From: a virus
Taxonomy: Duplodnaviria > Caudoviricetes
DNA length: 64,000 bases
Reading direction: 5' to 3' (one strand)
Virus record (IMG/VR): IMGVR_UViG_3300021431_000075
Coordinates: 320,001-384,000 of that record
Shown here: positions 3,269 to 64,000 of the stretch, piece by piece
Numbering within the stretch: the first letter of the stretch is position 1
Layout of the letters: every line of letters begins with the position of its first letter
The notes under the pieces: generated by a model
Databases searched by the model: none
Told to the model about the DNA's origin: nothing
The model's input: only the letters and a program-made list of their open reading frames with translations
Made by a program: the position numbers and the translations under genes

Positions 3269-3943
3269 TCAATTTTGATCGTATTTATTCATGTCTATTT
3301 GGTGGTTATGTATCATTTCATCTGTAGTTAATAATCTATTATATATACGGATTTGATATATTATTCCGTTCAGATAAAAATTTCCGTATGTACCAGTACT
3401 TCTGCTTCCTAAATATGCTACACTACCAGATTTAGACCAATACGTACCACTCGAAGCAAAACTTCCAATATTTCCATTAACTATATTTGCTGGACTACTC
3501 CCATAATGGACAGAGTTTGCAATAAAACCAGTTGATATAGGTATTTTATTATAGTTTTTATTTGTCGACATACTACATAGACAATTTGCTGTAGTATTAT
3601 GAAAACCGTACATTATTGTATTAGAACCCCCACTTTCCAATACAAATTGACTTTTACTTGCTCTCACATAAATAGCAACTTCAATAGTAGATGTATCAAC
3701 TGGATAATTCAAACTGACGCTTGCAACGCCTTTGCTATTTGTACCATTGAATACTACACCACCAAGAGAATCAACTGTTACATTTGACGTTGCAAAACTT
3801 ACACCGCCTTTCTTATCAACCCAAGTGTTAAGTGTAGGATTATAGTTAGCACAGTCCAAATGAAATACAAGTCCATATTGAATATAATCTTCATCTTGAT
3901 TGTTGGTATTGGCTGCTATCATTAATTTTCGTCTGAAACTCAT
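3269..3943 (-). CDS. LamG/concanavalin A-like lectin-domain protein, putative adhesin
   Basis: GLVFHLD..GVVFNGTNS..YLGSR..NGIIYQIRIYNRLLT; N-terminus MSFRRKL. Confidence 0.8.
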   Translation of the reverse strand: MSFRRKLMIAANTNNQDEDYIQYGLVFHLDCANYNPTLNTWVDKKGGVSFATSNVTVDSLGGVVFNGTNSKGVASVSLNYPVDTSTIEVAIYVRASKSQFVLESGGSNTIMYGFHNTTANCLCSMSTNKNYNKIPISTGFIANSVHYGSSPANIVNGNIGSFASSGTYWSKSGSVAYLGSRSTGTYGNFYLNGIIYQIRIYNRLLTTDEMIHNHQIDMNKYDQN

Positions 3944-4044
3944 AACAATTTCCTTTTCATGATTCTTTCTGCATCTTCTTTGTAAATCAAATTAACGTTA
4001 AATTCGTTAAGTTTTCTCTTGACGACTATTGCAACATCTCTCAT
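3940..4044 (-). pseudogene. remnant of the 5' end of gene 2404-3009 (34 aa)
   Basis: MRDVAIVVKRKLNEFNVNLIYKEDAERI vs MRDVAKVVKRRLNESTVNLISKEDAERI; its TGA overlaps the ATG at 3943. Confidence 0.8.
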
Positions 4045-4140
4045 CTCATAATGTTTTTCGTAGAGAGATTTCTTAATTTTTTATTTAATAAAAATACATT
4101 TTGTTTATTTATTGCACAAAAAAAAAAGGATTTTTGAACA
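3951..4140. repeat. diverged copy of about 2880-3060 (5' end and late promoter of gene 2404-3009)
   Basis: atgattctttctgcatcttctttg and cattttgtttatttattgcacaaaa shared. Confidence 0.9.
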
Positions 4141-4178
4141 TACTTGATGCACTTTTTTGTAAAATTGCATCTAAAAAA

Positions 4179-4185
4179 ATAAATA
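4179..4185 (+). promoter_or_regulatory. T4-like late promoter ATAAATA
   Basis: ATAAATATCTTAT context recurs at 42795, 48019 and 51876. Confidence 0.65.
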
Positions 4186-4217
4186 TCTTATAATATCAAA
4201 CATAGAAAGACAAACCA

Positions 4218-6137
4218 ATGAACACTCTATACAGAAGAAGAAATTATTATATAAATGAAGACTTGCTGGACAAGGTCAGTGTGGATGAAGTCGAAGATGA
4301 AGATAATGATGAAGCCAAAAGCATCAAGAATGATGAGAATGCTGATTGTAATGTCAAGTTATGGTTTGGTTATGATTATGGAAACACTGCAATGTGTGTT
4401 GCTGATTGTATTTATGACTATTTGGATAATTGTTCTTTTGTCAAGAAGTTTAAGGCGCCGGTTCATGACCGGTGTCATCATAAAATCGGAATCAATTTCT
4501 ATTCTGATGACATGAAGGCAGAAGACTTGATGAGTCTGATAATCTTTATGTCTTTTAAGTCAGGCGAACGGATGCGTGTCATGGATGAAAATACGAACGC
4601 AAGTTGCTATGTCGAAATTGAAAGATATTACTTGAATGTGGATCTTAGAGAATTTGGAAATTTTTTCAATGGATTCTTTCCGGATGAGAACACCGAGAGA
4701 CTTTTTAAGTTATTTGTTCGAATGTGCATAACAAGGCGTCTTTTGAGAAGGTCGGAGTATTCTGATTTGCCGGGTTATCAAGTTCAGCTCGGATATGAGA
4801 AACACAACTTGGTTGATGAATATGGGAATTTTTTACTCGATAGATGCTACAGCGAAAGTCGAAAGTTGGATAATTGCGATTTGGTCCGTGTTAAATCAGG
4901 AGAAAAGTACAATATCATAGACAAGAGCGGAAAACTTTTGTTTGATGAGAAGAAGTGGTTTGACATGCAGGGATATATGATGTGTGACGGATATATAAAA
5001 ATAGGTTATGGAGCCGGTTATGGCACATATAAGTTCTGGTACAACTTCATTGACATTGACGGAAATTTTCTGAATGACGAGCATTATGATGATTGTGGAA
5101 ACTTCAATGAAGGACTTGCTGCTGTCAAGATAGACAGTCGATGCAATTACATAGATACAGACGGGAACATTGTTTTTGATGAGTGGTTTGATGAGTGCGG
5201 AACTTTTATAAACGGATACGCAAGCGTCAGAAAAGATTCTAAATGGAATTTCATTGACAAGAAAGGTAAGTACTTGAGTAAAGAGTGGTTTGACAAATGC
5301 TATAACTTTGAGTATGGTATGGTTGTTGTCAAGTCAAAGAAATGCAATATGATAGACAACAAAGGAAAACTCGTATTGGCTGAGTGGGTTGATAATATCG
5401 GCACTTTCGTTGATGGATTTTCTATTGTCACGCTTAAGAATAAATTCAATTATATAGACAAGAAAGGTAATCTGTTGTCAAATGAGTGGTTTATCCAGTG
5501 TATCAATTTTAGTGATGGTTTCGGTATAGTATCGAACAAAAAGTCAAAGAAGAACTTTATTGACAAGGATGGAAATTTTTTGTCAAAAGACTGGTATGAC
5601 GATGCATGCTCTTTTGAATGCGGATTTGGCAGAGTACATGATGTAAATAAAAAGGGATGGAACTATATAGACAGAAATGGAAATATTCTGTCACCAAACT
5701 TGTGGTTTAAATCTATTGATGATTTTTGTGACTTTGGTTTGGCACTGGTTAATGAGAATAACTATGATAAGTATAATTTTATAAGGAGAGACGGTAGTTT
5801 AGTTATTGACGGATGGTTTAAGTTCGCAGATCATTTTAGAGAAGGTTTTGCACAAGTTGAAATGATTATCAATGGTCGTGAATCATATAATTTCATAAAT
5901 AGCAAGGGAACCATTATTTCGCCGGATGTCTGGTTCAGGGAAGTCTCGAATTTCAGAAACGGTGTTGCAAAGGTGACAGATTTTTCCGGGAAAATCAATT
6001 ATATAAATGAGGATGGCAAACTTTTGTTCAAAGAATGGTTTGTGTACAAGAAGATGGTTAGCGTTGAGGATGGTATGCTTGTCACGATGAATGGACTGGC
6101 TGTTGATTTAAACGGAGAATATGTGTCATTGATTTGA
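4218..6137 (+). CDS. WG-repeat protein
   Basis: many FxxGxAxV..wNfIDxxG repeats after an N-terminal domain. Confidence 0.9.
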   Translation: MNTLYRRRNYYINEDLLDKVSVDEVEDEDNDEAKSIKNDENADCNVKLWFGYDYGNTAMCVADCIYDYLDNCSFVKKFKAPVHDRCHHKIGINFYSDDMKAEDLMSLIIFMSFKSGERMRVMDENTNASCYVEIERYYLNVDLREFGNFFNGFFPDENTERLFKLFVRMCITRRLLRRSEYSDLPGYQVQLGYEKHNLVDEYGNFLLDRCYSESRKLDNCDLVRVKSGEKYNIIDKSGKLLFDEKKWFDMQGYMMCDGYIKIGYGAGYGTYKFWYNFIDIDGNFLNDEHYDDCGNFNEGLAAVKIDSRCNYIDTDGNIVFDEWFDECGTFINGYASVRKDSKWNFIDKKGKYLSKEWFDKCYNFEYGMVVVKSKKCNMIDNKGKLVLAEWVDNIGTFVDGFSIVTLKNKFNYIDKKGNLLSNEWFIQCINFSDGFGIVSNKKSKKNFIDKDGNFLSKDWYDDACSFECGFGRVHDVNKKGWNYIDRNGNILSPNLWFKSIDDFCDFGLALVNENNYDKYNFIRRDGSLVIDGWFKFADHFREGFAQVEMIINGRESYNFINSKGTIISPDVWFREVSNFRNGVAKVTDFSGKINYINEDGKLLFKEWFVYKKMVSVEDGMLVTMNGLAVDLNGEYVSLI

Positions 6138-6498: not shown

Positions 6499-7972
6499 TA
6501 TTATTTTGTGCCAAGATGTTCTTTTTGAAAGACATTTTCTTAGCATAAATCCTGTTAGACAAAAGTTTGGAGACAACTGGCTGACATGCAGCCAGAGAGA
6601 CTCGATACATCATTTTCGGGTCTGCTTTTAGAGCATAATATATTTTCCTCAAGTCTATTTCAGAGTCCTTCAAGTTAAATACTTCCATCGTTCGCTCTAT
6701 TCGTTCTCTGAAGTCGTCAACATTCGGAAACAATATGTTCTTTGTTTTTGCAAAATCATTTGCAATATACTGGTGATAATATTCGTAAGTTCTTCTTCCA
6801 ATCTCGATTGATGCAAGGCACATGTCGGGCAGATTGCAATCTCTGAACACGAAGTTGCTAACAAAGCTGCTATATTCACAAAACACTTCCAAGCACTCTA
6901 TGTCATATTTAGCGCAGTTCTTTCTTATGTTGTCAACTAAAGGTCTGCGGAGCCACTGGTTGTTTATAAGCCTGTTGAAGTTCGTTCCTTTCTTGTTGTC
7001 CTTTGTTACGATTGCAAGTTGTTCATAACCGAACAAAGAGCAACCATAGTGAACTGCCGTTTCAACAAGCGTATTCGAGACAAGAAATATCTCGTTGTGA
7101 CGCTCGTTCGTTATCTTCTTTCTCTTTCTATGACTGCTTGGTAAGTGCTGTTTTTTCAACGCATATTCTGCGTCGTTCAAATCTTTGATTGTGATTGTGC
7201 CGGACTCTACTATATGGAAATCACTATGTGATTTCCAGTCAACAACGCTCCAACCAACATAGTTGGGATTCAAGTCTATTGCAAGAACCCTGTCCTGAAT
7301 CTGCTTCGGTCTGTTAACTATCTTGACATTCTTGTAAAGTTCCTTAACTTTGTATGATATGTATACATATTGTGCATCAATCTTGTAAGTGATAGGCATA
7401 TCACCCGCAACCTGATGTTCATATAGCAGTCTTATAATTTTGAGATAATTCTTAGACAGTCTTGCAGAGAACTTAACTTCCATCCATTTCTTGCCCGGCA
7501 TTAGTATCCTAATGCCGCTTAAGTCATCAAGCAGCCTGAACTTTCTGTTACCAAAACGTCTTGCTGAACCTGAGTCTGCTGATCCTATACTGACAAGCGG
7601 AGAGAGCCTGCCGGCTCTCAACTCATCTTTTGAAACCTTGCCGCTTCTATAGTCGTTCATCAGGGACTTGCCGCCGAAGCAAGTCCGTATCTTCTTCTCG
7701 CTTGTCTTCTGAAGTTCCTTCTCTGTTTCATAAATTGCATTGCCTTCATATACAGCAGACCGCTTCAACCAAGAGTCAAGAAGATTTATGTCATTATAAT
7801 CATCAAACGAATTGTCCTTTACCGGAATTCCTTTCTCGTATTTCTTGAACGCGGAGCGTATGATGTGAGTCTGCTGTCTCCGCAAATCGGAAATCAACAT
7901 ACGGTCTTCGGTTGAATTATATTCAACCGGAATCTTGATAGTGCTGTATGTATCTTTCTGATTCTTGGACAT
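6494..7972 (-). CDS. tnpB: TnpB-like RuvC nuclease
   Basis: RuvC-I LAIDLNP, RuvC-II YEQL, YSSF..PDMCLASIEIGRR RuvC-III; no CxxC-CxxC zinc finger. Confidence 0.8.
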   Translation of the reverse strand: MSKNQKDTYSTIKIPVEYNSTEDRMLISDLRRQQTHIIRSAFKKYEKGIPVKDNSFDDYNDINLLDSWLKRSAVYEGNAIYETEKELQKTSEKKIRTCFGGKSLMNDYRSGKVSKDELRAGRLSPLVSIGSADSGSARRFGNRKFRLLDDLSGIRILMPGKKWMEVKFSARLSKNYLKIIRLLYEHQVAGDMPITYKIDAQYVYISYKVKELYKNVKIVNRPKQIQDRVLAIDLNPNYVGWSVVDWKSHSDFHIVESGTITIKDLNDAEYALKKQHLPSSHRKRKKITNERHNEIFLVSNTLVETAVHYGCSLFGYEQLAIVTKDNKKGTNFNRLINNQWLRRPLVDNIRKNCAKYDIECLEVFCEYSSFVSNFVFRDCNLPDMCLASIEIGRRTYEYYHQYIANDFAKTKNILFPNVDDFRERIERTMEVFNLKDSEIDLRKIYYALKADPKMMYRVSLAACQPVVSKLLSNRIYAKKMSFKKNILAQNNT

Positions 7973-8196
7973 TTTATGATGCTTGTTATGACATATTATT
8001 TATCTTTAAAATATTTCAATATGAAGATTAGCAAATGATTTTTTATGTTAAAAACAATTAAAAATCAATCTGTATATATATTTTTTTCAAATTATTATTG
8101 CATATTGTTTATTTAATCATTATCTTTGCATTGTGATATGAATTCATTAAAGACTGATAATATGTTTATATTCTATAACATAAAAAATAATTTATG
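6499..8196 (-). mobile_element. TnpB-only insertion element (IS200/IS605-related, no transposase)
   Basis: antisense RuvC ORF bounded by TTTATG at 6493-6498 and 8191-8196. Confidence 0.7.
8121..8128 (+). promoter_or_regulatory. outward-facing Bacteroidota-type promoter inside the element
   Basis: aatcatTATCTTTGc, similar to aatcatTATTTTTGc at 6271-6285. Confidence 0.65.
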
Positions 8197-8325
8197 AATT
8201 ATAATCACAAGTTCATCAAGTACACTTCTGCTTGCGGAATGTTATGGTTTGCTGAAACAAGCAAGGACGGCTATGAAACATACATCAAGCGGTTCCAGCC
8301 TGTGATAGATGTTTATGAATCATAG
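8194..8325 (+). pseudogene. 3' part of the interrupted gene (43 aa, has its own ATG)
   Basis: MNYNHKFIKYTSACGMLWFAETSKDGYETYIKRFQPVIDVYES. Confidence 0.6.
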
Positions 8326-8346
8326 ATACTAAAACAGAGATGATAT

Positions 8347-8742
8347 ATGGAAGAACTGAATAAGAAAAGACTTGCTGATTTGGCAAGCAGACTGTTTTCC
8401 AGAACGAAGATAACTTGGAATGGAAAAGATGCGGTCGATTTGACACCTGATGAATTTTCAAACATTGTTAAATGCAACGACTTTAGTTGGAAGCCGTTTC
8501 TCCGTTCATTGAAAACGATGACAGATGAAGAGAAACTTGAACTGAAAAGCGTTTATGATGCTGAATATGTGACAGATACATCTATATGTTTTTTAGAAGG
8601 CGGAACATTGGAAGAGTATCTTTCAGACATATCTTTTAGATTTTGTTCAGAACTTACTGACTGGCTTGTTGCACATCGTTTTGATTGTCATGGATTAATT
8701 CCAGACGGAAATGCGATCGAAGCGCCTGATGGTATGTATTGA
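8347..8742 (+). CDS. hypothetical phage protein (PFLR..MTxEEK type)
   Basis: paralog-like to 15304-15747. Confidence 0.8.
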   Translation: MEELNKKRLADLASRLFSRTKITWNGKDAVDLTPDEFSNIVKCNDFSWKPFLRSLKTMTDEEKLELKSVYDAEYVTDTSICFLEGGTLEEYLSDISFRFCSELTDWLVAHRFDCHGLIPDGNAIEAPDGMY

Positions 8743-8841
8743 AATTTGACTGATTGATTTGTAATCAATTAAATATCAACAATCTAATAAAAATAAGTTG
8801 TTTTATAAGTTACCGTTAATGGTAAGAAAAATCTTAATTAT

Positions 8842-9396
8842 ATGAAACATATACTAATAAGATGCGCTCATTGTCAAAAACTATATACATATTGCACATA
8901 TGGCAACGGTCCGGAGTATGGAACTGATGAAGGTTGTTCTCGAACATATTGCGCTGAATGTCAGAAAGCGATTGATGCTGCTCTTGATGCAATCCCTGTC
9001 AAGTACAGGCCTGTTCAAGTCGAGATTCACGACGACTCTGTTCTTGCAGAACTTGACAGGATTAAGAAGAAATGCTCTGAATCAGATGACGGAATGTTTC
9101 CTCAAGCAATGCAAATGGTTTGCGACGAGTACAGCAATATCGACAAGTTCACATTTGACGGTTCTGTCTATTATGTCAAGTACAACGACAAGAGTCCGGA
9201 TGACAGGCATTTGTTTGTCGAGATGGAGTACGATGTATTGAACGAGAAAGTGACAGATAGGTACTGGAATGCAGAGAGCATGGAAGAAACTTATCGGAAG
9301 ATGAGAGCGATGAACAGCGGTTTCGTTGATGCCGAGAAAGTGAAGCCGATCAATTTGTCAGAACCGAATCCGGAACTATTCTATTGCAGTTTTTAA
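8842..9396 (+). CDS. hypothetical protein with two CxxC motifs
   Basis: CAHC..CAEC. Confidence 0.8.
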   Translation: MKHILIRCAHCQKLYTYCTYGNGPEYGTDEGCSRTYCAECQKAIDAALDAIPVKYRPVQVEIHDDSVLAELDRIKKKCSESDDGMFPQAMQMVCDEYSNIDKFTFDGSVYYVKYNDKSPDDRHLFVEMEYDVLNEKVTDRYWNAESMEETYRKMRAMNSGFVDAEKVKPINLSEPNPELFYCSF

Positions 9397-9453
9397 CCAA
9401 GTCATGTTTGGAAGTTGCTTGAAACGTGTTTTTTTAATAAAAATAGAACAATA

Positions 9454-11952
9454 ATGAACAGAGAAATATATTTTTGCTTTGACTTTAGAAGCTGGCTTAG
9501 TGTGACAGAAAAAATGAAGAAGTTCGTCACGTCGAACAATTATTATGAGACAAGAGACTTGATAGACAAGGGAGAGACTGCAATCGTCACGTCGTCGGTT
9601 GCAAATCTGTCATTTGACTTGTTTGAAAAGTATAGGGTTTTCGTATGCGATGAGTGCGTGACTGTTGAGTTGAAACCCGGAATGGTTTTCAAGGACGGAA
9701 CTGTTATTCGTCGTAAGAATGGAAAAATGCTTGACTTGATTGAACACAGTCTGGCGGAACTTCAGGATTGCAAGATTATTGATGTTGATGACGATTCAAA
9801 TAGAAGAAAGGATTCTATGATCGATGTCGAGCGTTTTGTCGGCAATGTCATGGAACGGCTTTGTCAGAAAGACAATGACATGTACAAGATACTTCAGGAT
9901 TCTCTCTTTGAGCAGGGGCTTGTATATGAAGGTTCCAAGATAACGAAGGCTGGATGTGTTGAAAAAAGCCAGACTTCGACTTCTGGTGACGATTGTGAAA
10001 CATGTGAGCATGTAAGGAAGTTCAATGTCGGGGACTGGATTGTATCAAACGGCGGCATTAGAAACATCGTCAAGATAATGAAGGTTGTAGATAATGACGG
10101 TTTCGACGGTACTGGAAAGTGCAAGTATGTTCTCGGCGGTTCGGACGTTGAGTATGAAAAAGACCAAGACTATGTCGAGCAGAACTATCGTTTCTGGAGC
10201 ATTGATGACGCAGTTGCTGGCGATGTCATATCATTGGACAACTATCTTATGGTTTTCAAAGAGAAAATTGATGAAGGAACATGCACATCGTTCTTTACGT
10301 ATGATAGGGATTCAGATTTGTCGTATCCATTTGTCAAGTCTCTTTTCAATATAATCGGATGTCGTGTTTGTCCTGCGACTGAAGATGAGAAGAGTTTGCT
10401 TGAAGCGAAAATGAGGAACGGCGGATATGCAATGAGTGAAGACAAAACACAACTACTGAGAGTCAAGCCACATAAGTTCGAATACGGCGACTGGATTGTG
10501 TATGACACGAATAATGGAAATGTTTCGACGCCGCGGCAGATAACGGGAGTTGGAATGGCAAATGGTTGCTATTTGCTTGATGACAGCAAGAAGTATCCGT
10601 TTGACGAAGTCGATAAGATGTATAGAAAATGGAACTATGACGATATCAAGGATGGGGATTTCTTGTGCGCATATGAGTTCGGAAAACCGAAAGCGCTGTT
10701 TGTCAAGAGAGACGATTACAAGAATATCGGCGGCATGAGGTATCAATTTGCATATTCGTGCGATGATACTCATGGAAGCATAAGCGGCAAGGGATTCCCT
10801 GTTATTGTCTTTTCTGTCAGTGACGTGAGACCTGCTGATAAAGAGCAGAGGGAAACCATTTTAAGGGAAATTGAAAATGCAGGTTATCGGTGGGATGCTG
10901 CGAAGAAGCGTGTCATTCCAAAGGTAGAATCTGAAGAATCTACGTCAGACAAACAGGATGAAGAACAGCATAAGTTTTCTGTGGGAGACTGGGTTGTCGG
11001 ATTCGGAAAGACACTTCTTATTGTCGATATTTACAAAGATGATGACTTTGAAGGTTATGTATATAAGTTTGAGGGAGATTTTGTTTTGGCTGAATCGCTT
11101 CTTGATGATTTCCGGTTATGGAATCGAAATTTTGATGTCAAGAACGGAGACTTTCTTTGCAGCGATGAGAAAGGAATTCCTAAATATATTTTTATTGCAA
11201 GCAATTCGCATTTTAGCGGCTGTCGTTATTTGTATTATTGTCGATATTGCATTCAATCTGGTGCTTTTGAGACAGAAGACGGTTCTGTGTGTCTGTCTGA
11301 TGATATGTCGTTTGTTCATCCGGCTACGTCTGAACAGCGTAAACTGTTGCTTGACAATATTTTGTTAAACGGCTACAAATGGGATGATGATGTGAAGAAA
11401 TTGTCAAGCATTAAGATGAAAACGCCTGAAGAAAGCCTTGGTATTTCATCTCAAGAGTATGCAGACATTGTTGATGAATGCATTTTCGGAGATGACTGGA
11501 AATTCAAAGCAGGAGACTGGATCGTAGATGCCCTCAATTTTAAGAAGGAGAAGGTTGTTGCCTGCTCGAAAGAGACTGGATACTTTCTGTCAAGCGGTTC
11601 AGAAGAGTGGTGGGCAGACAAAGACGATGTTGAAGAATATTATCATTTGTGGACTATTGACGATTTGATGCCGTTTGATGCTGTTGTTTGTGTGGATGGA
11701 GACGAAAGGATATGTCTGTACAAGAAAGCGAACGATGATACTACGGTTAGATGTTATGGATTTGTTAATATAACACTAAGGAATTCTAAATTTGAATTGG
11801 CTGACAAACATGAGTTATTTCATACGAAAGGAATGCACCCGGCAACAGATGAACAGGAAAAACTGCTTAATAAGAAGATGAACGAAGCAGGTTATGTCAT
11901 TGTTACAAAGGATGGCAAGAAAAAGCTCATGAATCTTGTTGATGTAGATTGA
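9454..11952 (+). CDS. repeat protein with four KFxxGDWxV modules
   Basis: four modules GDWIV..W...D...GD.L..PA..E..L. Confidence 0.85.
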   Translation: MNREIYFCFDFRSWLSVTEKMKKFVTSNNYYETRDLIDKGETAIVTSSVANLSFDLFEKYRVFVCDECVTVELKPGMVFKDGTVIRRKNGKMLDLIEHSLAELQDCKIIDVDDDSNRRKDSMIDVERFVGNVMERLCQKDNDMYKILQDSLFEQGLVYEGSKITKAGCVEKSQTSTSGDDCETCEHVRKFNVGDWIVSNGGIRNIVKIMKVVDNDGFDGTGKCKYVLGGSDVEYEKDQDYVEQNYRFWSIDDAVAGDVISLDNYLMVFKEKIDEGTCTSFFTYDRDSDLSYPFVKSLFNIIGCRVCPATEDEKSLLEAKMRNGGYAMSEDKTQLLRVKPHKFEYGDWIVYDTNNGNVSTPRQITGVGMANGCYLLDDSKKYPFDEVDKMYRKWNYDDIKDGDFLCAYEFGKPKALFVKRDDYKNIGGMRYQFAYSCDDTHGSISGKGFPVIVFSVSDVRPADKEQRETILREIENAGYRWDAAKKRVIPKVESEESTSDKQDEEQHKFSVGDWVVGFGKTLLIVDIYKDDDFEGYVYKFEGDFVLAESLLDDFRLWNRNFDVKNGDFLCSDEKGIPKYIFIASNSHFSGCRYLYYCRYCIQSGAFETEDGSVCLSDDMSFVHPATSEQRKLLLDNILLNGYKWDDDVKKLSSIKMKTPEESLGISSQEYADIVDECIFGDDWKFKAGDWIVDALNFKKEKVVACSKETGYFLSSGSEEWWADKDDVEEYYHLWTIDDLMPFDAVVCVDGDERICLYKKANDDTTVRCYGFVNITLRNSKFELADKHELFHTKGMHPATDEQEKLLNKKMNEAGYVIVTKDGKKKLMNLVDVD

Positions 11953-51807: not shown

Positions 51808-52101
51808 AATGTTGTTTTCCGGTACCGGACTTCGGCTTTTTTATATTTATTTTTTGCTGAATCTATTTTGGAAAGATAAATATCTTATAATATAAAAAGC
51901 AAATCGTATGGATGAAATAATCATCTTCATTTGCTGGTAAATGATGAAATTGGCTTGGGTTGATAGAAGAAAATTGAAATTAAATTCAGTTGTCGTTCTT
52001 ATGAAGCCGTTTAGGTAACAAACGAAAACAATTTGTTGAAATGATTCGACAAGCCATTTTAAGATAAATACAATACACAAACGGTTAATTCGATTTTAAT
52101 C

Positions 52102-53998: not shown

Positions 53999-54005
53999 TA
54001 GTTTG

Positions 54006-55559
54006 ATGTTTAGGGTTTTTACAGCATTCAGTGGATATGATTCCCAGTGTCTTGCGCTTAAGAGATTGCAGGAACGGTTTCCGGACTTCAAGTTTGAGCT
54101 TGTCGGGTGGTCTGAAATTGAGAAGTCTGCGATAGAGGCGCATAACATCTTGTTTCCGGAATACAAGGATAAGAACTATGGAGACATTTCAAAGATAGAC
54201 TGGAATGACGTTCCGAACTTTGACATGTTGACCTATAGTTCTCCGTGCTTTGTTGCAGGGACTAAGGTGGTGACAAGCGCAGGTCTTAAGAACATAGAAG
54301 ATGTGATAGAAGATGACTATGTTGCTACTCATACCGGTCAGTATAGAAAAGTGCTGAAATGTATGGAGCATGAGCATATCGGTTCATTGTATAGGGTTGA
54401 ACTGGAAAGTGGCAACAGTGTCATTTGTACTCCGAATCATCCATTCTATTGTGTTTCAAAGAATGACAAGAAGAATGCTATTTGGGTTGAGGCACAGAAT
54501 CTTTCCGTTGATGAGCATCTATGTAAGCTTGTTGTTGATTTTAATACAGATGGGATGACTCCTGTATTTGACAACAAGATTATAAAAGATATAGAAGTGT
54601 ATGATAATCAGAGAGATATAGTTTACAATTTGCAAGTTGATGAATATGAGTCATACATTGCAAACGGAATCTGTGTTCATAATTGCACAGACTTTTCAAT
54701 AGCAGGTCATCAGGCTGGCGGAGAAGAAGGTTCTGGGACACGTTCATCCCTGTTGTGGGAGTGCGAGAATGCAATATCTATAAAGAGACCGAAGTATTTG
54801 ATTCTTGAGAATGTGACAGCTCTTGTGAACAGGAAGAACAAGGATGTGTTCTTTAAGTGGATTTCACGAATCTCGAAGTATGGTTATGTGTCATTCTGGA
54901 AGATATTGAATGCAAGTTGGTACGGGATACCTCAGAATAGGGATCGCTTGTTTCTGGTTTCCGTGCTGAAAGAGAATCCGGAAGATATTGTGAGTTATAA
55001 TTTCCCCAATCCGTTCATTAGAGGATGTTCGATAAGTGATTTTTTGAGCAAGGAAGTTGATAAGTCATACTATATTGATTCAGAAGCGGTTAATAAGTGG
55101 ATTGTTGAGAATGAAAATAAAATAAAGGCTTGTATTTCAGAAAAGAATCATATAGATATAAATAGTATTGTCATGGATGATTCTTGCATATATGAGTTTG
55201 ATACAGATACAGAAGAAAAACGCGATAACGATATATCAATGGAAGATAAAGATAACTGCTTGTTTGGCGAGCAGGAACAAGATTGTTGTCTTGTGAAAGA
55301 TCCCAAGCAGGCGACTAAGGACAAGAAGCAGAAGCGTGAACGGAAGAAGAAGATTCGGAATGATGTTAGTAAGTATGAGGGATGCCATATCGTAGATAGA
55401 ATTCCGACTCCGACATGTACAGGAAATGTGGCTCCTACTTTGATGGCGTCAAGTTATGAAGCCGCTGATTATAAGAATTTTTATAGTGTTGGTCATTTTC
55501 CGAAGCTCGGCATTCTTGAGGTTTGGGAACGAGACGGTGTCGAAAAGAAAAATAATTAA
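54006..55559 (+). CDS. dcm: C5 DNA methyltransferase, large subunit (motifs I-VIII), intein-containing
   Basis: AFSGYDSQ, SSP-[intein]-CTDFS, ENV, QNRDR; motifs IX-X absent. Confidence 0.9.
   Translation: MFRVFTAFSGYDSQCLALKRLQERFPDFKFELVGWSEIEKSAIEAHNILFPEYKDKNYGDISKIDWNDVPNFDMLTYSSPCFVAGTKVVTSAGLKNIEDVIEDDYVATHTGQYRKVLKCMEHEHIGSLYRVELESGNSVICTPNHPFYCVSKNDKKNAIWVEAQNLSVDEHLCKLVVDFNTDGMTPVFDNKIIKDIEVYDNQRDIVYNLQVDEYESYIANGICVHNCTDFSIAGHQAGGEEGSGTRSSLLWECENAISIKRPKYLILENVTALVNRKNKDVFFKWISRISKYGYVSFWKILNASWYGIPQNRDRLFLVSVLKENPEDIVSYNFPNPFIRGCSISDFLSKEVDKSYYIDSEAVNKWIVENENKIKACISEKNHIDINSIVMDDSCIYEFDTDTEEKRDNDISMEDKDNCLFGEQEQDCCLVKDPKQATKDKKQKRERKKKIRNDVSKYEGCHIVDRIPTPTCTGNVAPTLMASSYEAADYKNFYSVGHFPKLGILEVWERDGVEKKNN
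54246..54683 (+). mobile_element. mini-intein (146 aa, no endonuclease)
   Basis: CFVAGT..TPNHPF..VYNLQV..ANGICVHN/C; absent from paralog 55931-56992 (SSPCTDFS). Confidence 0.95.
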
Positions 55560-59195: not shown

Positions 59196-59486
59196 ATGGA
59201 TGGATTTGGTTTTAACGATCAAGATTTGAACTTCACCATGCCGAATGTCTATGGATATGATACCATGAAGTGCGAGTGCGGTTGTGAGACTTTCACACGC
59301 GGGTACATATTCAAGAAGGTTCCCGGAATCTTGTTTGGCGGTGGTGTTGATGAAGTTCCTGTCCCGCTGGAAGTGTTTTTCTGCAGCAAATGCGGAACAA
59401 TTCCGGAATTTATTAAGAAGAAGCTGAAAAGCGAGGAAGAAAAGGCAAAGAAGGCAGAAGAAGCCAAGAAAACTCTCATTGTCTGA
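59196..59486 (+). CDS. zinc-ribbon hypothetical protein
   Basis: CECG..CSKCG. Confidence 0.75.
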   Translation: MDGFGFNDQDLNFTMPNVYGYDTMKCECGCETFTRGYIFKKVPGILFGGGVDEVPVPLEVFFCSKCGTIPEFIKKKLKSEEEKAKKAEEAKKTLIV

Positions 59487-60241
59487 TGGAAGTTGATAAC
59501 ATATACAATATGGACTGTCTTGAAGGGATGAAACTTCTGGACGACAAGTCGGTTGATTGTGTTATTTGTGATTTGCCTTATGGAATGACGAGCAACAAGT
59601 GGGATTCAATCATCCCGCTTGATGCTCTCTGGAAACAATACGACAGGGTTTGCAAGGATAATGCTGCCATTGTCTTGACTGCAAGTCAGCCGTTTTCAAG
59701 CATGCTTGTCATGTCTAATGTCCAGATGTTCAGACATGAGTGGATTTGGATAAAGAACCGCGGAAGCAATTTTGCAAATACAGTCAGAGAGCCGTTCAAG
59801 GAACATGAGCATGTTCTTGTGTTCAGCAAGGGCAAATGGACATATAACAAGCAGATGCAGGAAAGGACAGGAGGTGGCGCGGAAAGAGTCAAATATGACT
59901 TGACGTCTACATCGACAAGTTCCAATTACAGGAATTTTGACAAGCCGCAGACCAAGAACGCATCCGAGTTGAGAGTTCCGTCATCTTGGCAGAAGTTCAA
60001 CACTGAAACCGGTTTGCACCCGACACAGAAGCCGGTTGATTTGTTTAGATACTTGATACGGACATACACGAATGAAGGAGAACTTGTTCTTGACAATTGT
60101 ATTGGAAGTGGCACAACGGCTATTGCAGCATTGAGAGAAAAGCGTCATTTTGTCGGTTTTGAGTTGAATAAAGACTATTATGAGATTGCCACCAAAAGAA
60201 TAAAGGATGAGCAAGATTATATGTCTGAAAGTTTATTTTAA
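59486..60241 (+). CDS. N4/N6 DNA methyltransferase (beta class)
   Basis: DLPY, HPTQKP, DNCIGSGTT. Confidence 0.95.
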   Translation: MEVDNIYNMDCLEGMKLLDDKSVDCVICDLPYGMTSNKWDSIIPLDALWKQYDRVCKDNAAIVLTASQPFSSMLVMSNVQMFRHEWIWIKNRGSNFANTVREPFKEHEHVLVFSKGKWTYNKQMQERTGGGAERVKYDLTSTSTSSNYRNFDKPQTKNASELRVPSSWQKFNTETGLHPTQKPVDLFRYLIRTYTNEGELVLDNCIGSGTTAIAALREKRHFVGFELNKDYYEIATKRIKDEQDYMSESLF

Positions 60242-60530: not shown

Positions 60531-60540
60531 ATTTCAGAAC

Positions 60541-60596
60541 AAAAGTGGACTTTTTGAGATTGATTTGAATCAATGTATTCTTAATGAGTCCACTTT
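60541..60596 (+). terminator. long hairpin / terminator
   Basis: aaagtggact/agtccacttt. Confidence 0.6.
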
Positions 60597-60917
60597 GTGT
60601 TTTTGAAAGAATAAATCTGTGCATTTTCAACATTTATTGTATAATTTTCATGGTTTTGTGACAGTTTAATAAAAGACGGTTTTTGAATTCAATGAAAAAA
60701 ACTTTTCAAGTATTTTGAGTTTTTAATATTTTTTGGGATTGTATGAAAATTATTCAGCATGGATGTAAAGATTACATGTTTATGTTCTTGAAAATTGAGT
60801 TTTCAAACATCTTCAAAAGAGAGTATTTTGAAAAATTTAGCGCTTGGAACAAATAAATAAATTACCCTTCTTTTAAAAACTGTCAATGCCTATAAATTTT
60901 CAAAAGACTGAAGAAAA

Positions 60918-61550
60918 ATGAAAGAAACTAATTTCTGTTTAGACAGTGCAACTCCGATTATTTACAAAGAGAATATTGACGGAGAAGTCATTATAGAACC
61001 GATAAGCAATGCATATGAAAAGCATCAGGATGATGTTATTTACGTATGCGTGCATAAGTTCAATGAAACAGAGCATACTACCAGCATCGTTACTTGGGAA
61101 GAAGCGAAATTATGTCATACAGAGAGTATAAAGGAAGTTGTCATCTATCTACAGCCGGATGACTTTATGAACACGACGCTTGAAAGTGACAATGTGATTC
61201 GTGTTACTCCCAACCATGTGTTTCCGGTGTTGAAGCCAACGGGTCTGAAGAACATTGAGAGTTATCTTATTCAGACAGGAGATTTGATTCCGTTCGACAA
61301 GGGAAGAGAACTTGAAGAAGGTGTTGATGCAGAAGGATTGACAAACGAGTATATGCTTGAGAACAATTCCGTCCAGCGTCTTTATTATAGACATGTTATG
61401 AAAGTTTCGATTGACGAGTATGATGAGACCAAGGAAAACGGTTTTTCAAAAGATTTCTATGGTATCAAAATTACTGCAAAGGATGCGCCAAGCAAATACT
61501 TTATGATTTGTAATGGTGCTATCAGCCATGATTCTTCAGTAGAATACTAA
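60918..61550 (+). CDS. stand-alone Hint (intein-like) domain protein
   Basis: Cys7 CLDSATPI, TPNHVFP, GDLI, FYGI..YFMICNGAISHD/S. Confidence 0.85.
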   Translation: MKETNFCLDSATPIIYKENIDGEVIIEPISNAYEKHQDDVIYVCVHKFNETEHTTSIVTWEEAKLCHTESIKEVVIYLQPDDFMNTTLESDNVIRVTPNHVFPVLKPTGLKNIESYLIQTGDLIPFDKGRELEEGVDAEGLTNEYMLENNSVQRLYYRHVMKVSIDEYDETKENGFSKDFYGIKITAKDAPSKYFMICNGAISHDSSVEY

Positions 61551-61635
61551 TTTTTGTTAATAATATATCGGCAATATGCTTGTTGCATGGAGTATGCTGT
61601 GTATTTGCCGGTATTCTAAATTTATACTTATAACA

Positions 61636-64000
61636 ATGAATGTAGAGAAAATGGACGGCACTATACAGCCGTTTAAATTTGACAAGATTGTGCGTGTTGT
61701 TCAGCGTGTTTTTGAGAGCAAGCCTGTGTGTGGTAAGGTTCCCGATAAGCTGATTGATGGTCTCAGGAAGTATTTTGAGAACTTTGTTTCCAAGAGTGAC
61801 AAGAAGGATTTGAACTATGCTTTACCTGTCGAGGACATACAGAACACGATTCGCGACTTTCTTATCATGAATAACCAGCCTATTGCTGTTGATAGTTTTA
61901 TTACATACAGGAATAAGAAGAACGAGATTCGTGAAAAGAAGTCATGGTTGACAAAAGATGTTGCAAGCAAGTTGAACGGAAAGAACCCTGAGAATCAGAA
62001 CGCCAATGTTGACGAGTCTTCTTTTGGCGGAAGAATGGGCGAAGCGACAAGAGTTGTGACGAAGGATTATGCTCTTAAGTTTTGTATGTCCAAGAAGTCA
62101 AGACACAATCATGAGAAGAATTTCATCTATATTCATGACCTTGATAGTTATGCTGTTGGAGAGCATAACTGCCTGAGTTGTCCGCTTGACAATCTTCTGA
62201 CCAAGGGTTTCAATACTCGTCAGACAGATGTTCGAAGCGCGAAGAGCGTGAACACTGCAAGTCAGTTAACGGCAGTCATATTCCAGATTCAGTCATTGCA
62301 GCAGTTTGGCGGCGTGTCGGCAACACATATTGACTGGACGATGGTTCCGTTCATCAGACGTTCGTTCGAAAAGCATTATATCTCGAACTGGATTGAAGAT
62401 TTGCAAGAGTTTGCCGAACTTGATATAGAGGACATGTCTTATGAGGATTTCAACAATTGGGTTGAGAAGAAAACAACTGAATTCTTTATAGAGACTGGTT
62501 ATGAAGATTCTGATTTCAAGTTTTCAAATAAGGAAAAGTTTGATAAGAAATTGTATCAGAAGGCTTTGAAGGAGACAAGAGATGAGACGTATCAGGCTGT
62601 CGAGGGTATGTATCATAATCTGAATACGCTTCAGAGTCGTAGCGGAAACCAGTTGCCGTTCTCATCCCTGAACTACGGAACTTGTACAGAGCGCGAGGGA
62701 CGTATGTTCACGAAGGCTTTGCTTGAAGTTTCATATCGCGGTCTTGGAAAGTTCGGCAAGACTTCCATTTTTCCTTGCGGCATTTTCCAGTACAAGAAAG
62801 GCATCAATGACAAGCCGGGCACAATCAACTATGATTTGAAGCTGCTTGCGTTAAAGTCAACATCAAAGAGACTTTATCCTAACTATGCGAACTGCGACTG
62901 GAGCAATCAGGTTGCATGGAAGAAACTTGACAACAAGGTCAAGCAGGGTGTTATAGATGAACTTACTGATGACGAGAGAAAGATTCTTGTTGAGCGTGTT
63001 AAAGACAATGGTGAACTTGCATATCATTTGAGTTTGAATGTTGTCAATGACGAACTTGTTCTTGACGAGCGAGAGAAACCGGAAGAGATGTTCTCTACGA
63101 TGGGTTGCCGCACAGTGAACGGTTTTGATGTCAATTTTGAGAACTCGTATAGGAACAATGTGATGCAGGTTATCAAGGACGGTACCTTGTATGATGATAT
63201 GACTTCGGGAGTCCAGAAGGACGGTCGTGGAAACATTTGTCCAGCCACGATTATTCTTCCGAAGATTGCCATGCTTGCAAAGAAACAAGAGGAAGAGTGT
63301 TGCACAGACGGAGAGAATCCATCAAGTGAAGATATTATCAACAGGTTCTTCTGCATATTGAAGAAGAAGATTAACGAGTCTAAAGATTCATTGATTGAGC
63401 GATTCAGATATGTGACTTCACAGCCTGCTGCATCAGCGAAGTTTATGTATGAGAACCATACGATGAGCGGTTATGTCGAGAGTGAGGGAATCGTGTCCGC
63501 ATTGAGGCATGGAACTTTGACAATCGGTCAGATAGGTATTGCAGAGACTGTTTATATTCTTACTGGTGATTATCATACAACACCTGCGGGAATGGAAGTT
63601 GCAAAAAAGATTGAGCAGTTGTTCTTGGATAAGTGCAATCAGTTCAAGAAAGAGACCAATCTTAATTTCGGTGTTTACTACACGCCGGCAGAAAGTCTTT
63701 GCTATACTGCTTTTAAGAAGTTCAAGGCAGAGTATGGTGATATGGAAGGTGTTACTTACTTTATCAATGACAAAGGCGAGCGCGAAGACAAGATGTACTT
63801 CACGAACAGTATCCATGTGCCGGTATATCTGCATATGACACCGTTTGAGAAAATTGACATCGAGAAGCAGCTGACGGGTTATAGCAATGCAGGATGCATC
63901 ACTTATATTGAAGTCGATCATGATGTTGTTCATAATATCAAGGCGCTTGAGGACTATGTTGATTATGCAATGGATAGTGATATTCCGTATTTTGCAATTA
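61636..64000 (+). CDS. nrdD: anaerobic (class III) ribonucleoside-triphosphate reductase with ATP cone; 3' truncated
   Basis: ATP cone; ENQNANVDE, YIHDLD..NC, NTLQSRSGNQLPF, TSIFP, MGCRT, TPAESL, YFTNS.HVPV. Confidence 0.97.
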   Translation, partial: MNVEKMDGTIQPFKFDKIVRVVQRVFESKPVCGKVPDKLIDGLRKYFENFVSKSDKKDLNYALPVEDIQNTIRDFLIMNNQPIAVDSFITYRNKKNEIREKKSWLTKDVASKLNGKNPENQNANVDESSFGGRMGEATRVVTKDYALKFCMSKKSRHNHEKNFIYIHDLDSYAVGEHNCLSCPLDNLLTKGFNTRQTDVRSAKSVNTASQLTAVIFQIQSLQQFGGVSATHIDWTMVPFIRRSFEKHYISNWIEDLQEFAELDIEDMSYEDFNNWVEKKTTEFFIETGYEDSDFKFSNKEKFDKKLYQKALKETRDETYQAVEGMYHNLNTLQSRSGNQLPFSSLNYGTCTEREGRMFTKALLEVSYRGLGKFGKTSIFPCGIFQYKKGINDKPGTINYDLKLLALKSTSKRLYPNYANCDWSNQVAWKKLDNKVKQGVIDELTDDERKILVERVKDNGELAYHLSLNVVNDELVLDEREKPEEMFSTMGCRTVNGFDVNFENSYRNNVMQVIKDGTLYDDMTSGVQKDGRGNICPATIILPKIAMLAKKQEEECCTDGENPSSEDIINRFFCILKKKINESKDSLIERFRYVTSQPAASAKFMYENHTMSGYVESEGIVSALRHGTLTIGQIGIAETVYILTGDYHTTPAGMEVAKKIEQLFLDKCNQFKKETNLNFGVYYTPAESLCYTAFKKFKAEYGDMEGVTYFINDKGEREDKMYFTNSIHVPVYLHMTPFEKIDIEKQLTGYSNAGCITYIEVDHDVVHNIKALEDYVDYAMDSDIPYFAI

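Follow-up and report, generated by a model that had tools for sequence, protein, structure and literature searches.

The window analysed here is a stretch of 64,000 nucleotides (bases 320001-384000) of the 673,114-bp virus record IMGVR_UViG_3300021431_000075, a gut megaphage genome that bears direct terminal repeats, has a G+C content of 40.7% and uses the standard genetic code. Toward the end of the window, directly upstream of nrdD, the gene for a class III ribonucleotide reductase (RNR), lies a small gene encoding a free-standing protein with an intein-like Hint domain. The features of the locus, given in window coordinates, are the following.

60531..60610, + strand: hairpin with a downstream T-run, which probably terminates the S1 / Zn-ribbon / MTase / DUF4494 block lying upstream (RNA fold)
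60852..60864, + strand: promoter-like motif R-ATAAATA-N4-A, 65 nt before the Hint-gene ATG
60918..61550, + strand: free-standing Hint gene, 210 aa, ATG start, TAA stop
60918..60935, + strand: N-terminal micro-extein MKETNF, 6 residues, bounded by an in-frame TGA upstream
60936..61532, + strand: predicted Hint (mini-intein) domain, Cys7-Asp205 (AlphaFold2 fold, Foldseek, VIA-align, about 33% identity to Lak NrdD inteins)
61533..61550, + strand: C-terminal micro-extein SSVEY, 5 residues, plus the TAA stop; tail conserved in the clade
61551..61635, + strand: spacer between the Hint gene and nrdD, 85 nt, with a weak conserved hairpin and without the promoter-like motif
61636..64000, + strand: nrdD, continuing past the window end (Pfam NRDD, E 1.8e-108; ATP-cone)

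The Hint gene was described in an initial annotation as an intein-like ORF with intein blocks between two micro-exteins, and Cys7, TPNH, and His204-Asp205-Ser206 were recovered where they had been placed. Block A is CLDSATPI and begins with Cys7 (60936-60938), block B is TPNH (T97-P-N-H100, 61206-61217), and block G is NGAISHD, with His204-Asp205-Ser206 at 61527-61535. Because an in-frame TGA is found at 60909-60911, 9 nt 5' of the ATG, the N-terminal flank cannot exceed MKETNF. The absence of both an endonuclease and a host protein was also borne out, as a Pfam search of the 210-aa protein matched no endonuclease family and the domain is flanked by only 6 and 5 residues.

Upstream of the Hint gene, the hairpin at 60531-60610 has a folding energy of -28.7 kcal/mol (z -5.4; none of 200 shuffled sequences reaches this stability), and its 80 nt are nearly invariant in contig L010, which carries a related locus. 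The entire 387-nt gap upstream of the Hint gene is 87% identical between the window and L010, and the surrounding block about 81%. The heptamer ATAAATA, noted at 60853 from the outset, ranks first in enrichment among the 7-mers that precede genes in this phage, being present in 110 of 314 upstream gaps versus 6.9 expected (16-fold); its copies lie mostly 20-50 nt before an ATG, with a peak at 30-40 nt, and the base at +11 is an A in 85% of them. The 20-mer at 60848-60867, which contains the motif, is identical in L010. Other copies of R-ATAAATA-N4-A occur in the window, e.g., at 52063, 51875, 48018, 39577, and 23668. No further RATAAATA was found on the + strand from the Hint gene to the window end, including the region before nrdD, and the hairpin in the 61551-61635 spacer gives fold z values of -1.6 in the window and -2.0 in L010. 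A terminator before the Hint gene, a conserved promoter-like motif, the lack of such a motif before nrdD, and the placement of nrdG directly next to nrdD together suggest that Hint, nrdD, and nrdG form one expression unit. A search of the window against Rfam gave no match at gathering score, only a single chance-level miRNA match (E 0.44), and an intron or riboswitch in the flanks of the Hint gene was ruled out on this basis.

The adjoining nrdD is the sole copy in the genome, and its end is overlapped by nrdG. It encodes an 854-aa protein with an ATP-cone from residue 1, the glycyl-radical motif, and MGCRT; the ORF is uninterrupted, in agreement with the earlier claim that no intein sits at MGCRT. 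DNA context was obtained from three lineages, namely the window, L010 (76% identity in the Hint protein), and the contigs L011 and L012 (both 47%). The gene order S1-domain / Zn-ribbon / DUF4494-like / Hint / nrdD is common to L010, L011, and L012, and in L011 nrdG follows nrdD. Synteny with nrdD, which the initial annotation had proposed as a check, is kept at both levels of Hint identity, with the gene always directly upstream of the reductase. Between the window and L011, the identity is 47% for the Hint protein, 40-65% for the flanking genes, and 30% for NrdD, and the L011 NrdD (3352-5352) lacks the ATP-cone whereas that of the window possesses it. Reductases that differ to this extent amid better conserved flanks, with an ATP-cone in one only, suggest that the reductase gene was exchanged while the locus around it was conserved. 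The Hint gene stays before nrdD although the two reductases differ strongly. An ORF of L011 (2152-2499) that fills the upstream gap in that contig left no trace in the window or in the rest of its genome, and the N6/N4 DNA methyltransferase gene of the window (59486-60241) is reduced in L010 to a truncated, frame-broken remnant (4164-4427).

The initial annotation had asked for an HMM search and a structure prediction to establish the Hint fold, and the second of these gave the clear answer. The Pfam Intein_splicing model matches the Hint protein below threshold (E 0.0047, 17.2 bits against a cut-off of 35.8 bits), a PHROGs search with the protein gave no match, and the family profile finds only inteins in the PDB, with weak matches to the Pab PolC and CDC21 inteins. 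The AlphaFold2 model of the 210-aa protein has a pLDDT of 87.4 and a pTM of 0.83, and its top Foldseek matches in the PDB are all intein, BIL, or Hedgehog Hint domains. In VIA-align, the model superposes on the Pyrococcus horikoshii (Pho) RadA mini-intein with a Z of 19.1 and an rmsd of 1.8 Å over 152 residues; residues 7..205 of the model match residues 1..172 of the RadA intein, so that the predicted boundaries of the Hint domain are exactly those of an intein. The predicted structure of residues 7-205 is thus unambiguously that of a Hint/mini-intein fold.

Class 1 inteins usually end in Asn and rarely in Asp, Gln, or Glu, and an Asp at block F position 4 (F:4) is frequent among them but not universal. 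The Hint protein possesses the nucleophile at position 1 (Cys7) and the block B T-x-x-H (T97-P-N-H100), a penultimate His followed by a cyclizable terminal residue in the atypical Asp form (His204-Asp205), and a +1 nucleophile, Ser206, which is invariant in the free-standing clade. In addition, it is homologous to embedded inteins, being about 33% identical to those in the NrdD of Lak phages. The block F acid is missing, since Gly182 stands at F:4 in a by-eye alignment of F-Y-G-I with V-Y-D-I; an alignment of the same kind shows Gly at F:4 in the free-standing clade, which also lacks a His at F:13, and Cys at F:4 in the Lak NrdD inteins. Nor is there an in-frame insertion in a host protein, as the flanks measure 6 and 5 residues and the only nrdD is intact. 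The protein therefore has the structure and the active site of a class 1 intein and lacks the defining property, insertion in a host protein. Terminal Asp, a non-Asp residue at F:4, and a missing F:13 His are each known to slow or uncouple splicing. On the other hand, the review PMC4031507, citing Amitai et al. 2004, reports that inteins ending in Asp, Gln, or Glu follow the standard mechanism.

An exhaustive phmmer search of 1.84 billion representatives yielded 14 related proteins, to which a profile search added 10. These relatives fall in two groups, one of inteins embedded in NrdD and the other of free-standing proteins of 209-221 aa, the latter consisting of the window's Hint protein, P0002, P0003, P0004, P0005, P0007, and the partial P0006 and P0012. 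The free-standing ORFs are intact at this length in lineages down to about 34% identity. The embedded inteins are inserted as ...SLSSC / C...THN / CRLKN... (slashes at the boundaries), immediately before the Cys that aligns to the MGCRT Cys of the window's NrdD, and the NrdD sequence is unbroken on either side in P0046 and L008. A tblastn search located the NrdD intein, at about 33% identity, in 15/15 Prevotella Lak megaphage records, and it is also present in IMG/VR contigs of 313-554 kb (L002-L008); the Lak inteins align over residues 7-209 of the Hint protein with E values of 1e-22 to 1e-27. A complete Lak-like genome of 553,716 bp contains the embedded copy only, whereas the genome of the window contains the free-standing copy only, together with its single intein-less nrdD. 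In the maximum-likelihood tree, a branch of length 1.9 with 100/100 support parts the free-standing His-Asp clade from all the embedded inteins.

Other free-standing proteins nest among the embedded inteins. P0013 retains Cys1 and ends with His-Asn and then a stop, without a C-extein, and P0049 and P0050 lack both Cys1 and His-Asn. Together with P0029-31, P0013 represents a metagenomic, 198-aa derivative of the NrdD intein in which 7 residues lead up to Cys1 and His-Asn forms the very C-terminus; P0049 and P0050, also metagenomic, are 177-aa derivatives without the terminal catalytic residues, and P0010 joins the N-half of a protein of their type to an unrelated C-terminal region. Judging from these sequences, the detachment of Hint ORFs from nrdD seems to have happened more than once, with some of the products losing their chemistry. 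A plausible starting point is the arrangement in the Lak-like contig L003, where nrdD (7166-10678) is in several pieces split by HNH/NUMOD-type genes and the intein sits in a 275-aa ORF with short extein parts.

A scan of the contigs of 185,579 bacterial and archaeal species genomes found no relative, IMG/VR scans with P0013 and P0007 as queries found nothing, and a profile search of longer proteins (631-2000 aa) found none, which is weak evidence given that embedded forms turned up by other routes. At the level of structure, the look-alikes of the Hint protein in the ESM Atlas include several clusters of small viral Hint proteins, and a few phage proteins of 143-199 aa in BFVD share the fold, which indicates that small Hint ORFs are not unique to this phage.

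The four closest members of the free-standing clade (47-76% identity) share C7, T97, P98, N99, H100, H204, D205, S206, S207, and V208 without exception, and Cys7 and block B are also kept in P0005, P0007, and P0013. The initial annotation had further proposed to look at the short flanks, and both proved to be kept throughout the clade. All full-length members except P0005 end in the tail S-[SN]-V-x(1,2)-Y. The N-terminal flank counts 4-9 residues before Cys1, again with the exception of P0005, and the clade has Asn at -2 and F, Y, L, or Q at -1. The singleton P0005 carries Arg-Gly where the others have a His and an acid, with 3 further residues after it; at the other end, its start was called 16 codons ahead of Cys1, and a second, internal Met is present at 4 codons. 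Throughout the clade, the terminal acid is Asp, except in P0012 (Glu) and P0005. Asp is a single nucleotide change away from Asn, yet the acid is conserved, so that an acid at the intein end appears to be selected. A further residue, Cys66, is conserved among the free-standing proteins; the embedded inteins carry Val there.

The Hint gene is under purifying selection at a level like that of its neighbors. The dN/dS (Nei-Gojobori) is 0.088 for the window versus L010 (pS 0.68, pN 0.145) and 0.041 for L011 versus L012 (6 synonymous and 1 nonsynonymous difference), and the four neighboring genes give 0.07-0.12 for the window versus L010. The initial annotation had allowed for homologs occurring only embedded in large proteins while this copy drifted under relaxed selection; embedded homologs do exist in the Lak NrdD, but selection on the free-standing gene is not relaxed. 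Its central idea, that an intact intein with nothing to splice points to domestication, is strengthened by the purifying selection, by the conserved catalytic residues and flanks, and by the kept position at nrdD. Of the three mechanisms that it put forward, namely release of an 11-mer, a Hedgehog-style transfer, and a redox- or metal-sensitive partnership with NrdD, the data favor none over the others.

The explanation considered probable, though by no means certain, is that the Hint protein is an exapted mini-intein of the NrdD type, free-standing and probably self-processing, whose gene heads a Hint-nrdD-nrdG unit and is maintained by purifying selection. It would descend from the inteins located before the catalytic Cys of NrdD in Lak-like megaphages. 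The residues for the first step of splicing are intact, and the best reading of the sequences is that at least this step may still be performed, i.e., that an N-S acyl shift at Phe6-Cys7 would generate a thioester. Two routes could follow. In the first, the thioester would be passed to Ser206 and slow cyclization of Asp205 would release a 199-aa Hint domain and a ligated 11-mer, MKETNF-SSVEY; in the second, N-terminal cleavage alone would take place after thioester formation. Transfer of the N-extein to Ser206 with slow cleavage at Asp205 is probably what occurs, although confidence in the third step is lower, given the Asp in place of a terminal Asn, the Gly at F:4, and the lack of a His at F:13. 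The Arg-Gly of P0005 indicates that the C-terminal chemistry is dispensable, or has been lost, in that protein, and the lack of a C-extein in P0013 and of terminal catalytic residues in P0049/50 indicates that free-standing Hint ORFs can exist without splicing. The conservation of both micro-flanks fits efficient self-processing and a functional ligated peptide equally well. The processing, or its product, may be tied to the function of NrdD/NrdG or to the cellular redox state, a link suggested by the position of the gene in the operon of an O2-sensitive class III RNR. More tentatively, and with the odds rather against it, the virus may have exapted the splicing chemistry itself in the absence of any host protein, in order to supply a conserved ligated micro-peptide (...N-F/Y joined to S-S-V-x-Y), an activated N-terminal thioester, or a processing-dependent redox switch for NrdD/NrdG; if so, an intein would for the first time be shown to serve a function of its own.

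The main rival holds that the exapted Hint domain is no longer catalytic and that the unprocessed 210-aa protein serves as a binding partner or as a redox/metal sensor for NrdD or NrdG, with Cys7, His100, His204, Asp205, and the clade-specific Cys66 acting as ligands or contact residues. Purifying selection and synteny support it as well as they support a self-processing protein, and the conservation of Cys66 in the free-standing clade only, the weakening of step 3 by the missing Asn, F:4 acid, and F:13 His, and the persistence of the dead, free-standing P0049/50 all speak in its favor. This binding or sensing role is nevertheless considered unlikely, as the full class 1 residue set, including Ser+1 and T-x-x-H, has been kept, and binding alone does not obviously need it. 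A further proposal is that the gene is a decaying, functionless relic, i.e., an intein-bearing exon or fragment that outlasted the exchange of a mosaic nrdD for an intact allele and has yet to erode. Such fragments can be envisaged from the Lak-like nrdD broken by HNH genes, whose intein lies in a short ORF, from the stand-alone Intein_splicing ORFs in the fragmented nrdD of Jug phages (PMC12880540), and from the traces of inteins that phage 949 shows in hypothetical genes adjoining its nrdD (PMC3653736); moreover, P0005 and P0049/50 have lost catalytic residues. However, dN/dS values of 0.04-0.09, like those of neighboring genes, an ORF that stays intact at 209-221 aa down to about 34% identity with its catalytic residues and both flanks conserved, a conserved promoter-like motif of its own, and a divergence (47%) within the range of the vertically inherited neighbors (41-65%) contradict a relic, and this proposal is strongly disfavored and improbable.

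Another proposal makes the Hint domain a true intein whose larger host protein would arise through RNA splicing, frameshifting, or stop recoding, in which case the micro-exteins would be an artifact of ORF calling. Lak phages recode TAG, and this habit, the intron-fragmented genes of related megaphages, and the in-frame TGA 9 nt before the ATG are all compatible with it. Against it, all members but P0005 have a Met within 4-9 codons upstream of Cys1 and terminate 5-6 codons past His-Asp, NrdD begins with a complete ATP-cone, the upstream gene ends before the terminator hairpin, and no Rfam intron is present in the window. Furthermore, TAA, TGA, and TAG all end long ORFs in the genome, and recoding mainly inflates spurious or overlapping ORFs, on which grounds an alternative genetic code was rejected. 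An extended host protein is thus scarcely credible.

Among known systems, the NrdD mini-inteins of the Lak phages (Lak-A1, -B1, -C1; L002-L008) are the closest homologs, being equal in size, likewise devoid of an endonuclease, and alike in Cys1, in a block B of the form T-P-[ND]-H, and in the association with class III RNR. They differ in being in frame within NrdD, with a His-Asn end and a Cys+1 that is the catalytic Cys of the enzyme, whereas the window's protein has no host, carries His-Asp with Ser+1, Gly at F:4, and Cys66, and lies beyond the long 100/100 branch. The atypical RNR inteins ending in Asp or Gln (Amitai, Dassa and Pietrokovski 2004, via PMC4031507) share the terminal Asp and the RNR context; they are embedded in functional host proteins, unlike the free-standing Hint protein, and according to that review such terminal residues can cyclize and support splicing.

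Separate Hint-containing genes at phage nrdD loci have been reported as stand-alone Intein_splicing ORFs listed at fragmented nrdD genes in Jug phages (PMC12880540) and as intein traces in hypothetical genes next to nrdD in Lactococcus phage 949 (PMC3653736). These were described as fragments or traces and reported without evidence of selection, whereas here nrdD is intact and the Hint gene, equipped with a start, a stop, and a promoter-like motif of its own, evolves under purifying selection in several lineages. The fractured genes with split inteins and free-standing homing endonucleases of Dassa et al. 2009 (PMC2677866) are comparable in the unusual layout of intein parts around phage or metagenomic replication or RNR genes, but there the intein halves are fused to host halves. 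A split intein or fractured gene was rejected for the window, where the Hint domain is contiguous in one ORF and no host (extein) halves lie nearby.

BIL and Hedgehog domains resemble the Hint protein in fold (VIA-align Z of 15.9-16.1 and 14.2-14.7, respectively) and in serving a function of their host, but they reside in larger proteins with cargo, whereas the window's protein has flanks of 6 and 5 residues and groups with true inteins. BIL domains are Hint domains in variable regions of larger bacterial proteins, the A-type lacking a +1 nucleophile, and Hog proteins consist of an N-terminal cargo, the Hint domain, and a C-terminal sterol/adduct-recognition region. Assignment as a BIL domain was discarded because the protein is a free-standing phage ORF with a conserved Ser+1, its nearest relatives are true inteins, and no relative was found in the 185,579 species genomes; a Hedgehog/Hog domain was discarded on account of the short ends of the protein, just 6 residues on the N-terminal side of the Hint domain and 5 on the C-terminal side.

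Inteins are commonly regarded as selfish elements, for which the one activity under selection is their own removal from an essential host protein. At this locus, purifying selection preserves an entire intein active site although there is no host protein to rescue, and the gene occupies a fixed place at the head of an anaerobic RNR operon; a protein element of the parasitic type seems to have gained a job. The route from embedded intein to stand-alone gene is documented here, and phage nrdD loci seem to have followed it on more than one occasion. The gene therefore offers a direct test case for recruited intein chemistry, be it peptide production, acyl transfer, or redox-gated self-processing, and its conserved Asp/Ser junction and very short natural exteins could interest intein engineering. 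No paper describing a conserved free-standing intein gene was found, although the coverage of the literature was incomplete and novelty is not proven thereby.

The same genome contains other intein-like sequences. The ORF at 54003-55559 of the window encodes a C5 cytosine DNA methyltransferase with a canonical mini-intein (54246-54686; Pfam Intein_splicing, E 6.9e-12), running from Cys1 to His-Asn with a Cys+1 and inserted between the Pro and the catalytic Cys of motif IV (SSP / C...VHN / CTDFS). An origin of the Hint protein from this intein was considered and rejected, the sole similarity being a block B match with an E of 0.007. A family B DNA polymerase is encoded in two ORFs at about 537,780-538,580 of the genome on the - strand (L016, ORFs 1540-2583 and 104-1105); an N-terminal intein part closes the first ORF and a C-terminal part opens the second, with about 430 nt containing stops between them, an arrangement that may represent a split intein, an interrupted intein, or a fractured gene. 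Finally, a weak Intein_splicing match (E 0.025) at 560,144-560,512 on the - strand of the genome (L019) falls in a long ORF with the N-domain of a T4-type terminase large subunit and is a possible TerL intein.
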